A stretch of DNA of 58,114 nt from a virus. Taxonomy: Duplodnaviria; Caudoviricetes. The stretch covers positions 1 to 58,114 of IMG/VR virus record IMGVR_UViG_3300048770_000009; one strand, written 5' to 3'. Shown here in pieces: positions 5,637-8,548 of this stretch. Below the pieces are notes generated by a model. The model saw only the letters and a list, made by a program, of their open reading frames with translations, searched no databases and was not told the DNA's origin. The translations under genes were made by a program, and so were the position numbers. Position 1 is the stretch's first letter. Each line of letters starts with the position of its first letter.

Positions 5637-6170
5637 TCATGCTTTCTCTACCTCTAACCGCGGCCATCCGTGAGAGCGCAGAGTTACCCAGATCGGAACC
5701 AGACCTTGATCTTTGAACCTGCCAGGACGCCGGTACTCTCGGCCAAACTCTTCTTTCCATAGATCGAAGTTCTCGCGCATCGGGAATACGCCGCAGGGGA
5801 AAAGCTCCATACAGCGCAGCGCTAACTGGTCTTCGCTGCCTACGATGTCCCAGCGCAGTTTGTGGTCATCCCTCTGGCCAAGAATCCGCAGATACGCCCA
5901 CCACCCCATATAAGCAAAGCCGAACAGACCTGGCTGGTAGAAGGTCCAGAGATAGGCCGCCCGGCGCACTGGCGTTTCCACGGTCTCAACTTGGCGAAGA
6001 TGCTCGCGTTGCCTCTTGATGCGCTCGGCTTTGAGTTGGGCGTAGGTGACGAACTCCAGACGGCCGCCGTAGTTTGTGGCGTACTTAACGCCGCGCGGGA
6101 GGAAACTGCCAGTCTTTCTGACCCGCTCGATCATGTTCAATCCGTCGTCTACTACCGCGCTGGCTTTCAC
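5637..6170 (-). CDS. Hypothetical protein
   Basis: ORF track 5637..6194. The likely start is GTG at 6170, overlapping the stop of the groEL relic (GTGA). Confidence 0.6.
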   Translation of the reverse strand: MKASAVVDDGLNMIERVRKTGSFLPRGVKYATNYGGRLEFVTYAQLKAERIKRQREHLRQVETVETPVRRAAYLWTFYQPGLFGFAYMGWWAYLRILGQRDDHKLRWDIVGSEDQLALRCMELFPCGVFPMRENFDLWKEEFGREYRRPGRFKDQGLVPIWVTLRSHGWPRLEVEKA

Positions 6171-6274
6171 TTCTTCTGCTCCGGCCACGTGCAAACCATG
6201 GCCTCGGTGGTCAACAGTAGGGCTGCAACGTTGGCAGCATTCTGGAGAGCGCAGCGGCAGACCTTGCTGCTCAT
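6167..6274 (-). pseudogene. groEL: Displaced original groEL 3' end (35-aa mini-ORF [35 protein letters not shown])
   Basis: 21 of 33 aligned residues are identical to the C-terminus of the intact GroEL at 6869-6967. ATGA and GTGA overlaps with both neighbours. Confidence 0.85.
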
Positions 6275-6813
6275 ACTAACCTCGCGTATTCTCCGTGCAA
6301 TTCAAGCGCGGCGGGAACATAAAGTTCCTCATATGCGGCCTTTGCGGTAAGCCGATAGCCTAAGTTCTTCCGCTTGCCGTGGACCCGAATCCCGGCGGCG
6401 TACATCTGTAGTCGTTTATAGAAAGAAACACCTTTGTACCCACTTGTGTTGTTTTTGAACTTGCGGCGATTGCACGCACTCTGGTGTTGATCGACGATGC
6501 GCAAATTCTCGCGTCGGTTGTCTAGGGTGTCCGCTGGACGAATGTGATCCCCCTCGCGCGGATCTCCGTAGTGTAGGCCAAGAATTAACCTATGCATCCT
6601 TAATCTCGTTCTGCGACCGTTCGGAAGGACGATGTTACTGATCGCATAAACGATTCCCTTAGAATCCTTGCAGGCAGACCACGAGAACGTCATAAGCCAT
6701 TCGTAGTTATCTGCGTCAACGATAGCCACAAGGTTGTGTGTGAGTGGAATGTAGCGATAGGATGTATAAAGCGGCTGGACGACCGACATCCTCGGTTGGG
6801 GTTTACCTGCCAT
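6271..6813 (-). CDS. HNH homing endonuclease with AP2 DNA-binding domain
   Basis: MHRLIL...GDHIRPADTLDNRRENLR (HNH) followed by NNTSGYKGV...GIRVHGKRKNLGY (AP2). RBS GAGGTG precedes ATG 6813. Confidence 0.9.
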   Translation of the reverse strand: MAGKPQPRMSVVQPLYTSYRYIPLTHNLVAIVDADNYEWLMTFSWSACKDSKGIVYAISNIVLPNGRRTRLRMHRLILGLHYGDPREGDHIRPADTLDNRRENLRIVDQHQSACNRRKFKNNTSGYKGVSFYKRLQMYAAGIRVHGKRKNLGYRLTAKAAYEELYVPAALELHGEYARLV

Positions 6814-6868
6814 GATCTCACCTCGAATGAGATTGTGCGCACTGGCCGCGCACAACCCCATTCTATCA

Positions 6869-8548
6869 CTATTTCTTGTCTGGAAACGAGGCAACCATAG
6901 CCTGCGTTGTAAGTAACAGCGCACTGACTGAGGCCGCATTTTGTAAGCTACACCGAACGACACGCGCCGGGTCGATAACTCCAGTCTCCACCAAATTCTC
7001 AAATCTATCGGTGGCAGCGTTCCACCCAGCCTGGCTGTCCTCCAAAGGTTTAGAGGTATCGGATTGCCGACACCAGTAAGATATTGACCACCATCTGGCG
7101 CGTCTCCTATCCACTTTGCCGCGGTTCACGTTCACGATGAAGTCAGTCTCTTCCTGGCTCATTCCGGCATTGGCGGCGATCTGGCGCGTGGGAGATTCAA
7201 GCGCAGCAAGCACGATCTGAGCACCGAGCTTCTCGTCGCCTGCCAGCATATCGATCTGAGCCTGTAGCGCGTCAGTGCATAGGAGCAGCGCCTTACCGCC
7301 GCCAGGGACGATGCCTTCCATGACAGCCGAGCGCGTGGCGCAAACAGCGTCGTCCACTCTGTCCTTGCGCTCCCGCATCTCCCCTTCTGTGACAGCCCCC
7401 ACCTTGATAACTGCCACCCCGGACGCCAGCCGCGCCAGCCTCTGCTTGAGCCGCTCCCGGTCAAGGTCGTTCTCGGTCGAGTCAATCAGCGATCGCAGGA
7501 GCGTCATGCGGCTGTTCTTGCCCTCCTCGTCGCCATACCCCCCGGCAATCGTGGTGAAGCTCTGCCCCACCGTGACGCGCACGGCCCGCCCAAGGTCGTC
7601 CATGGTCACCGTAGACAGCGGCCTGCCGCAGTCCTCTGTGAAAGCGTAGGCGCCTGTCACGAGAGCCATGTCCTCCAGCATCGCCCGGCGCAGATCCCCG
7701 AAGGCTGGAGCCTTCACCGCAACCGACCGCAACACCCCAAGTTGGTTGTTGTGGATCAGCGAGATCACAAACGGTTGGTCGAAGTCTCCAGCGATGATGA
7801 GTACCGGCCTGCCGGACTGCCCCACTTGGGCCAGCACCGTGTCCAGTTCCGGCGTCATGGTGAACAGCTTGCGCTCGGTGAGCAGGATGTAGGGCTCATT
7901 GAGAACCGCTTCCAGGCGCTCGGGGTCGGTGATGAACGGGTACGCCAGCCAGCCGCGGTCGATCTGCATCCCCTCGACCACCTGCAGCGTGGTCTCCGCG
8001 TCCGTGGATTCCCCGATGGTGATAACGCCATCCCGGCCGACACGCTTCATGGCGTCGGCTATCAGCTCGCCGATGGAGCGGTCGCCGTTCGAGGAGATGG
8101 TGCCCACACGCACGATGGTTTCATCGTCCTGCACCGGCTGGGCAATGCTCTTGATGTGGTCTGTGACGACCGTCACAGCAGCGTCGATGCCACGCTTGAG
8201 GGCTACGGGGTTCGCTCCGGATGCAAGGCAGGCCAGCCCCTTCTGGTAGATCACTTGGGCCAGCAGCGTGGCCGTGGTGGTGCCGTCGCCCGCCTGGTCG
8301 CTTGTTTTGCTGGCGGCCTCGCGGATGAGGTTGGCGCCGGCGTTCTCGTAGGGGTCGGCCAGGTCGCGGACTTCCTTCGCCACAGTCACGCCGTCCTTGG
8401 TAACGACTGGCGGCCACATGGGATTGCGTTCAAGGATGACGTTGCGGCCCTTGGGCCCCAGTGTGCAGGTGACCGCATCGGCCAGCGTGTTGACGCCGCG
8501 CAGGATCGCCTGCCGGATTTCATCGCCCTTCATGATCTTTCTGCTCAA
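6869..8548 (-). CDS. groEL: Chaperonin GroEL (Cpn60)
   Basis: TLGPKGRNV, TKDGVTVAKE, GDGTTTAT, VEGMQIDRG, AVKAPAFGD, GIVPGGG. TTG start at 8548 with GGAGG RBS. No GGM tail. Confidence 0.97.
   Translation of the reverse strand: MSRKIMKGDEIRQAILRGVNTLADAVTCTLGPKGRNVILERNPMWPPVVTKDGVTVAKEVRDLADPYENAGANLIREAASKTSDQAGDGTTTATLLAQVIYQKGLACLASGANPVALKRGIDAAVTVVTDHIKSIAQPVQDDETIVRVGTISSNGDRSIGELIADAMKRVGRDGVITIGESTDAETTLQVVEGMQIDRGWLAYPFITDPERLEAVLNEPYILLTERKLFTMTPELDTVLAQVGQSGRPVLIIAGDFDQPFVISLIHNNQLGVLRSVAVKAPAFGDLRRAMLEDMALVTGAYAFTEDCGRPLSTVTMDDLGRAVRVTVGQSFTTIAGGYGDEEGKNSRMTLLRSLIDSTENDLDRERLKQRLARLASGVAVIKVGAVTEGEMRERKDRVDDAVCATRSAVMEGIVPGGGKALLLCTDALQAQIDMLAGDEKLGAQIVLAALESPTRQIAANAGMSQEETDFIVNVNRGKVDRRRARWWSISYWCRQSDTSKPLEDSQAGWNAATDRFENLVETGVIDPARVVRCSLQNAASVSALLLTTQAMVASFPDKK

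Follow-up and report, generated by a model that had tools for sequence, protein, structure and literature searches.

The groEL gene of a peat-soil phage (Caudoviricetes), represented by the 58,114-nt IMG/VR record IMGVR_UViG_3300048770_000009 (the whole of which was analyzed and is referred to here as the window), is a hybrid whose 3' end has been replaced by foreign sequence, followed directly by a free-standing HNH-AP2 endonuclease gene and by the stranded native end of the resident gene. We consider it probable that this arrangement is a mobile, free-standing homing-endonuclease cassette carrying a replacement gene end, which makes it a phage counterpart of the mORF hybrids of fungal mitochondria. 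Directly observed are (i) the anatomy of the locus, (ii) a presence/absence polymorphism among relatives, (iii) the foreign origin of the in-use gene end, (iv) spread of the cassette into different backgrounds, and (v) variants in decay.

The in-use hybrid groEL (8533..6869; minus strand, as are all parts of the element described here) encodes 554 amino acids from an ATG at 8533 to a TAG stop at 6871-6869. Its first 388 codons (8533..7369) are the resident 5' part, common to HNH-less relatives, and codons 389-554 with the stop (7368..6869) form an imported 3' segment, here called B1, which is the left part of the cassette. A 55-nt spacer (6868..6814), containing a hairpin and a ribosome-binding site, leads from the groEL stop to the start of the HNH-AP2 gene (6813..6271; stop at 6273-6271), which encodes 180 amino acids and whose true ATG is at 6813, not 6816. 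Behind it lies a 35-codon open reading frame (ORF; 6274..6167), the relic, in which the native groEL end makes up codons 4-35 (6265..6170) and the stop, codons 1-3 being junction sequence. The foreign tract as a whole runs from 7368 to 6267 and comprises, in 1102 bp, 166 groEL codons and their stop, the spacer, and the HNH-AP2 gene. The hybrid groEL product matches Pfam Cpn60_TCP1 (3.1e-65) and phrog_5725 (2.5e-144), and PF00118 spans residues 49-580 of the 586-aa groEL ORF, that is, a full-length Cpn60 domain. Its AlphaFold2 model likewise predicts a well-ordered protein, with a mean predicted local distance difference test score (pLDDT) of 87.4 and low values only in a loop at residues ∼471-500.

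The limits of the foreign tract were set by comparison with relatives (L-numbered loci), which we collected by scanning viral and metagenome contigs. Two of these, L006 and L021, contain no HNH gene, and their working groEL has a relic-type end that overlaps the same downstream gene. A preliminary description of this DNA had predicted that HNH-less relatives would end groEL like the relic, and this was borne out in both loci, whose flanks are ∼99% identical to those of the window. Compared with L006, the window shows 98.6-99.0% nucleotide identity upstream (9077/9074 down to 7369) and 96-97% from 6266 onward; between these flanks, 1071 bp of the window oppose 477 bp of L006 and are unalignable by blastn, and B1 could be aligned by blastn to neither L006 nor L021. 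Base by base, identity to L006 stops at 7369/7368, within the conserved ...GEMRE/RKDRVDD... codons, and resumes at 6266, 4-5 bases past the HNH stop. From 6266, the relic and the groEL end of L006 and L021 agree at 95% of bases (5 mismatches in 100), and across relatives its identity to the native allele is 95-100%. The same step is seen in the proteins, where the window and L006 share 100% of amino acids in codons 1-388, 53% in codons 389-522, and 69% in the tail. Together with the pairwise values for the family given below, this step at codon 388/389 rules out divergence in place. The preliminary description had placed the left limit at 7114, which would give an imported tract of ∼80 codons; neither figure held, as 7114 is the start of an out-of-frame loop, while the change of ancestry lies at 7369/7368 and the imported tract amounts to 166 codons from 7368.

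Codons 389-522 are also variable elsewhere in the family, as compared across L006-L019, P0009, and P0010: in pairs with 71-82% identity in the first 388 codons, this stretch reaches only 47-61%. It keeps 70-90% identity in closer pairs (81-92%), and in outgroup GroELs the two stretches are roughly equally conserved (42-57% in distant pairs). The native groEL of L006 (1823-2014) and that of L021 (159-350) contain a 192-bp in-frame insert encoding 64 odd residues; on its reverse strand, this insert is likewise open throughout and has a translation that looks more protein-like. No source of the L006 insert was found in the window or in any locus, and an Rfam scan of L006 1500-2400 (E up to 1) gave no match.

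The presence of the cassette varies among close relatives. The HNH gene is missing from L006, L021, and L007-L009, in which, as in L005, terL is retained (73-97% identity). In L006 and L021, it is absent from between flanks that are 96-99% identical, and B1 and three relic single-nucleotide polymorphisms (SNPs) co-occur with the HNH gene, which is the pattern of a homing-type locus. The three SNPs are shared by all seven contigs that contain the HNH-relic junction (the window, L004, L034, L035, L033, L002, and L036) and are absent from the native alleles of L006 and L021; one of them changes Ser to Asn. The cassette itself is invariant, with 0 mismatches in 1102 bp in L002 and L004, and B1 shows 0 mismatches in 500 bp in L002, L004, L034, L035, L005, and L003. 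Over the same comparisons, L002 and L004 differ from the window at 15-17 sites in the 1.7 kb upstream and at 42-46 sites in terL, and the B1-bearing contigs overall at 15-35 and 42-51 sites, respectively. Moreover, the cassette occurs in three downstream backgrounds, namely (i) the window type; (ii) that of L033, which matches L006 at 99.9% identity over the downstream 5.5 kb; and (iii) that of L002 and L036, in which the relic end differs (...MVATVPEKKP) and is followed by a small ORF and a methyltransferase gene. Past ∼60-70 bases, the relic follows the local background, as expected if the downstream crossover falls in the relic. Both forms of the locus were also found together in one DNA run, X2, as an HNH-bearing form (depth 9.7) and a native-allele contig (depth 6.4). 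A metagenome scan with the first 29 bases of the relic returned 5 contigs only, and a profile search for further stranded groEL ends among loci L002-L031 found one in L002 and L004, besides that of the window.

All seven distinct B1 contigs (the window, L002, L003, L004, L005, L034, and L035) have the HNH gene or a remnant of it directly attached. In L003, the HNH gene is truncated after codon 63, and in L035 it carries a 12-nt in-frame deletion in a conserved motif. L005 retains B1 and the spacer up to the HNH ATG, and it contains no HNH gene, relic, or next gene; its groEL ends ...FPDKK, and an 8-nt microhomology joins its spacer to what remains of the L002-type methyltransferase gene, namely the last codons at the 3' end. 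This microhomology join indicates that ∼1.4 kb was deleted. An HNH-less relative ending in ...FPDKK had been named beforehand as a finding that would contradict homing, and L005 appears at first sight to be one; the kept spacer, the methyltransferase remnant, and the 8-nt microhomology identify it as a secondary loss. We read L005, L003, and L035 as stages of the homing-endonuclease life cycle.

The alternative that survives best is ordinary mosaic recombination, in which the foreign end and the HNH gene arrived by general exchange, the nuclease is a passenger or inactive, and the relic is the scar of an illegitimate crossover that was later passed on. Patches are indeed common in this population: the upstream SNPs are clustered in the blocks 8294-7859 and 7706-7523, so that divergence is patchy, and the downstream genes have been exchanged between the window-type gene and the methyltransferase. 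The left boundary, too, is identical in all B1 contigs. Four findings speak against this explanation, which we regard as unlikely: the attachment of the HNH gene or its remnant to B1 in seven of seven distinct contigs, a right junction only 4-5 bases past the HNH stop, the intact HNH catalytic motif, and the clustering of HNH-AP2 genes around groEL and terL in relatives. Concerning the blocks themselves, window 7859-8294 is a private block of 15 groEL SNPs that occurs in none of seven relatives, and L034 and L003 share the other, 7523-7706.

The HNH-AP2 protein matches phrog_99 ("HNH endonuclease"; 6e-31), while its own Pfam scores are below threshold (HNH_3, E 0.055; AP2, E 0.13). A database search returned 583 homologues at E 1e-10 or better, many of them with PF13392 and PF00847. 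An alignment of homologues shows no variation (40 of 40 sequences) at His91, Asn100, Asn104, and Asn116 (numbered on the 181-residue translation from 6816; one less in the true protein), all of which the window protein has. In its AlphaFold2 model (pLDDT 94.3), the C-terminal part is predicted to be an AP2 domain resembling that of WRINKLED1 (7wq5; Z 8.8, rmsd 1.5 Å over 60 residues) and that of AtERF1 (Z 7.4), and the N-terminal part aligns to I-HmuI (Z 5.1 over 77 residues). A sequence search of the PDB with the protein (E up to 1) found nothing, and a Foldseek search with the model gave no match at E 0.001 or better, its top rows being I-HmuI and AP2 domains. With the catalytic H/N/N/N residues kept, an AP2 DNA-binding domain, and an I-HmuI-like N-terminus, the predicted enzyme looks intact. 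Its C-terminus ends where those of its homologues end and is therefore complete, so that the cassette stops directly behind a complete gene. The gene is free-standing, as it lies in a separate frame after the groEL stop and has its own GAGGTGA 4 nt before the ATG.

Related HNH-AP2 genes adjoin groEL or terL in L010, L011, L012, L016, and L019. Within the family, such genes were seen immediately behind groEL, ahead of terL, between groES and groEL, and behind dnaB. The relatives in L010 (5353-6132 and 8973-9551), L019 (5216-5989), and L026 (4941-5513) are 36-49% identical to the window protein; none of these genes has a stranded gene end, and those of L010 and L019 have an extra Cys-rich N-terminal extension. 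A profile search found no groEL relic behind the HNH homologues of L010, L011, L012, and L016, and there is no DnaB relic behind the HNH gene of L026.

The position of the gene, two genes from terL, raises the question of whether the protein is a domesticated phage function, such as a terminase packaging helper or a regulator, rather than a selfish one; Kala and colleagues are said to have described, in 2014, HNH proteins encoded beside terminase genes as packaging components. However, close relatives do without the gene (L006, L021, L005, and L007-L009), and it decays by deletion. Further, its HNH and AP2 architecture is that of homing endonucleases and is unlike that of the short packaging HNH proteins, as far as the accessible part of PMC10448857 describes them. 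A domesticated role is accordingly improbable.

The relic and the in-use end are homologous gene ends of different origin. By BLASTP, the relic matches the in-use GroEL C-terminus at 20 of 32 positions (30 of 32 positive; E 5e-13), and a C-terminal profile built from the last 75 residues of 12 family GroELs matches it at E 3.8e-17. In DNA, 52 of 102 positions agree between the relic and the in-use tail, and the same codon is used at only 5 of 20 identical residues, so that most synonymous sites differ; the imported tail and the relic have 44 of 78 bases in common, with 8 nt as the longest exact run. The G+C content at third codon positions (GC3) is 0.78 in the relic ORF, 0.80 in groEL codons 1-480, 0.83 in codons 1-398, and ∼0.50-0.52 in the in-use tail, and within B1 it declines from 0.65 to 0.52 toward the HNH gene. 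The relic ATG overlaps the HNH stop (ATGA), and the relic stop overlaps the in-frame GTG (6170) of the next gene. On these points the preliminary description was sound: the resemblance it had counted at 21 of 33 positions is essentially right, the relic does share the codon usage of the groEL body, the in-use copy is lower in GC3 and differs at most synonymous sites, and both overlaps are real.

Its term "recoded" for the in-use end implies design and is less apt. Over 60 bases of the native junction region, B1 agrees with the native sequence at 33, the lowest figure among ten alleles; the nine others agree at 40-49. The tail GC3 is 0.50 in the cassette, 0.54 in the tail of L010, which stands beside an HNH homologue, and 0.62-0.85 in eight tails with no adjacent HNH gene. 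Judged by its sequence, the in-use end is better described as a natural foreign allele of lower GC3, the most dissimilar available at the junction.

B1 occurs, 99-100% identical, in 8 protein clusters and on 40 contigs in all, and its next relatives, P0009 and P0010, are only 53% and 46% identical. A donor search with P0009 and P0122 in viral contigs led to L037 and L049, which have native B1-like tails, and found no donor and no closer HNH context. In these two loci, the tails ...ASFPDKK and ...ASFPEKK are native (GC3 0.85), and the in-use tail of the window is nearer to them (23 of 26 residues) than to the relic (18 of 26). A loop insert in B1 (residues 473-502; 7028..7117, minus strand) supplies a further link to this group, since an insert of ∼30 residues is present at the same place in P0009, P0010, and L049. 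In the window, the loop is out of the ancestral frame, and its +1 frame reads IGDAPDGGQYLTGVGNPIPLN, which matches the P0009 loop at 11 of 17 positions (pairwise E 4e-6) and also L049 (tblastn E 2e-4). As the loop is out of frame and the frame is restored on both sides, we conclude that a compensated double frameshift has occurred. It is fixed in all B1 copies, and the loop has a predicted pLDDT of 48-65.

These affinities bear on a tandem duplication of the groEL end in place, with subsequent divergence of one copy and later insertion of the HNH gene, for which the two homologous gene ends in direct orientation would be the expected outcome. However, divergence sets in 134 codons ahead of the duplicated stretch, the in-use tail resembles those of L037 and L049 more than it does the relic, and relatives have a native allele to which the relic is 95-100% identical. 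The extent of the tract, the affinities of the tail, and the step in identity contradict a duplication already, and we rate it as highly improbable.

The sequences between the genes contain signals for translation. In the spacer, a 17-bp hairpin (6863..6825) is followed by GAGGTGA (6824-6818) and by the HNH ATG at 6813; its minimum free energy is -27.9 kcal/mol (z -4.57), and 0 of 200 shuffles were as stable. GAGG stands 5 nt ahead of the relic ATG, and the GGAG (6182-6179) and GTG (6170) of the next gene sit inside the relic. Regardless of what becomes of the 35-residue peptide, the next gene thus depends on the 3' end of the relic. Assembled contigs from three metatranscriptome libraries cover 7292-7442 (across 7368), 6979-7224 (in B1), 6783-6983, and 6490-6832 with 0-1 differences, the last two taking in the groEL stop, the hairpin, and the HNH start; as carry-over of DNA is possible, they are only a hint of transcription. 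None of these contigs lies on the relic or the downstream gene, and none contains a joint crossing the cassette, which, in assembled contigs, shows nothing either way. The single joint listed, from 7978 to 8271 (side 20), is probably derived from the groEL of other organisms.

An endonuclease gene inside a conserved gene, together with inteins in the terL of relatives, might suggest a self-splicing intron or intein with the relic as the true second exon or extein, but this is the least credible of the alternatives: no Rfam family was found in window 5500-9200 (E up to 1), groEL runs through a complete, homologous C-terminus to an in-frame stop, the HNH gene lies in another frame with its own ribosome-binding site, and the assembled RNA-library contigs are unspliced across 7368 and across the groEL-stop/HNH-start region.

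On the reading that we favor, intronless homing by a cassette with its own gene end, the cassette would have replaced 508 bp of the resident groEL, and the last 32 resident codons would have been stranded downstream as the relic. Such an insertion would not be lethal, because the gene end of the cassette keeps GroEL full-length. When a relative with the native groEL allele co-infects, the enzyme would cut that allele, probably close to the insertion point with its conserved DPAKV...LQNAAS codons, and the break would be repaired from the cassette-bearing genome, with an upstream crossover in the conserved groEL body and a downstream crossover in the relic. With this downstream crossover, the relic would serve as a 3' homology arm. 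As the imported end differs at about half of its bases, it would presumably not be cut, nor would it recombine with the relic to delete the nuclease gene. Intronless homing into groEL had been proposed in the preliminary description, and the anatomy of the insertion and the relic-type end of HNH-less relatives uphold it; its tract limits and its notion of a recoded end are the parts to be given up. Its further suggestion, that the relic is kept for translational coupling or as a peptide, is at present a conjecture.

Several points weigh against this reading. Cleavage, the cut site, and discrimination between alleles by the HNH-AP2 protein are inferred from sequence. Because of its 192-bp insert, the L006/L021 allele may not be the exact ancestor, and no donor lineage of B1 was found, the best non-identical relative being 53% identical. 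Since the flank SNPs fall in blocks, the invariance of the cassette is weaker evidence of active spread than a plain tally of mismatches would imply, and we attach no probability to it. The identical left boundary could stem equally well from repeated homing or from a single origin with ordinary recombination thereafter. Finally, the tail and the relic use the same codon at 5 of 18 positions, a proportion that is within the family range (0.22-0.92) and gives no specific sign of selection for recoding.

A more far-reaching proposal, which we put forward tentatively and regard as possible rather than probable, is that the cassette is a self-contained module for swapping gene ends, in which the imported end would provide both immunity and viability, the relic would be a built-in downstream homology arm, and swaps would occur repeatedly. 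In such a module, the relic could not be lost, because the next gene has its ribosome-binding site and start codon within it. If this were true, repeated HNH-AP2 swaps around groEL would explain the divergence of codons 389-522, which in the family (47-61%) are as divergent as phage GroELs are from bacterial ones. The unusually low GC3 of nuclease-adjacent tails may be noted alongside this proposal.

The cassette is embedded in a small chaperonin cluster. Upstream lies groES (9074..8733, minus strand; Cpn10 in Pfam), and behind the relic follows a gene of ∼177-185 amino acids (6194/6170..5637, minus strand), whose homologues align from query residues 7-12, which fits the GTG start at 6170. No Pfam or PHROG family was matched by this gene (5637-6194), which is swapped for the small ORF and the methyltransferase gene in L002 and L036 and is missing in L005 and L007-L009. 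The large terminase gene terL (4092..5633, plus strand) is convergent with the minus-strand groEL cluster. A promoter/terminator scan gave one promoter-like site near groES and no terminator-like site, and a distant blastn search of INPHARED phage records gave one weak 220-bp match and no usable relative. The terL genes of L004 (7132-8413) and L002 (5555-6836) contain a 1283-bp in-frame insert directly after the Walker A GGGK, at a site corresponding to window 4246-4254; the window terL is without it. This insert ends ...THN before Ser and is intein-like with an endonuclease domain, but it starts with Met, not Cys or Ser. An intein-like insert is also present in the terL of L026. In L003, a different DNA methyltransferase gene (7939-9534) lies behind the truncated HNH gene, and a second HNH ORF (8300-8842) lies amid it in another frame, possibly as part of an intron or as a further free-standing nuclease.

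If our reading is right, this locus is a clear natural phage example of a homing endonuclease that resides inside an essential gene with neither intron nor intein, by means of a spare gene end. The metagenomic population shows most of the stages: the allele before and, in three backgrounds, after invasion; three products of decay; and both alleles in one sample. As these stages were captured together, the target, immunity, and spread of the element are directly testable with a few synthetic DNAs. For annotation and phylogeny, the locus is a warning that the last third of a phage core gene may have a history of its own, making the gene a chimera, and that a short "orphan" ORF following a nuclease gene may be a stranded gene end.

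One phage system for comparison is that of Aeromonas phage Aeh1, whose nrdA was reportedly found by Friedrich and colleagues, in 2007, to be split by mobE into two functional pieces with no duplication. In that system, too, a free-standing HNH gene is reported to lie inside an essential phage gene without killing it; the Aeh1 nrdA is said to be split, whereas groEL is kept whole by the imported end and the leftover piece is redundant.

The free-standing endonucleases SegF, SegG, and MobE of T4-like phages perform intronless homing with co-conversion, according to the available portions of PMC2988022 and PMC2790892. Like the cassette, these elements have a free-standing nuclease gene between or beside conserved genes, and, as the accessible text of PMC2988022 has it, they spread by double-strand-break repair that co-converts the flanks, and their presence varies among close relatives. 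The T4 elements lie between genes and are co-converted with no leftover duplicate (the same portion of PMC2988022), whereas the phage cassette lies within a reading frame and brings a replacement end and a relic. The HNH-AP2 family itself includes gp59 and gp209 of ICP1 and protist, cyanobacterial, and phage members, and it is associated with homing-endonuclease gene (HEG) islands and domain shuffling (PMC10448857, in part). The ICP1 proteins and the cassette enzyme are alike in having an N-terminal HNH and a C-terminal AP2 part and in being encoded beside or within essential phage genes; the accessible part of PMC10448857 contains no passage on a carried replacement gene end with a native relic.

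The closest parallel is found in fungal mitochondria, where mORFs carry a foreign gene C-terminus in atp6 of Allomyces macrogynus and in atp6, atp9, cox2, and nad3 of Glomus sp. (PMC3630166, in its accessible part, as throughout this comparison). Of the precedents invoked in the preliminary description for a carried gene end, the organelle ones are real, and no phage one was found in the literature searched. In a literature search to which subscription papers and supplements were not open, no phage endonuclease with a replacement gene end and a native relic was found. Like the phage cassette, mORF hybrids consist of a gene core, an imported in-frame C-terminus, an endonuclease ORF, and a stranded native C-terminus, and in both systems the native copy is near-identical to that of an element-less relative, while the imported copy is strongly divergent in DNA (PMC3630166). 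The mORF hybrids are apparently transcribed (PMC3630166), whereas for the phage there are only the assembled RNA-library contigs, in which DNA carry-over is possible. The two systems differ further in (i) the host, which is a phage of peat bacteria and not an organelle; (ii) the target, which is a chaperonin gene; (iii) the nuclease, which is of the HNH-AP2 type in the phage and of the LAGLIDADG or GIY-YIG type in the mORFs that the accessible text describes; (iv) the length of the imported piece, which comprises 166 codons in the phage, only the last 32 of them duplicated; and (v) the relic, which in the phage supplies the next gene with its ribosome-binding site and start codon.

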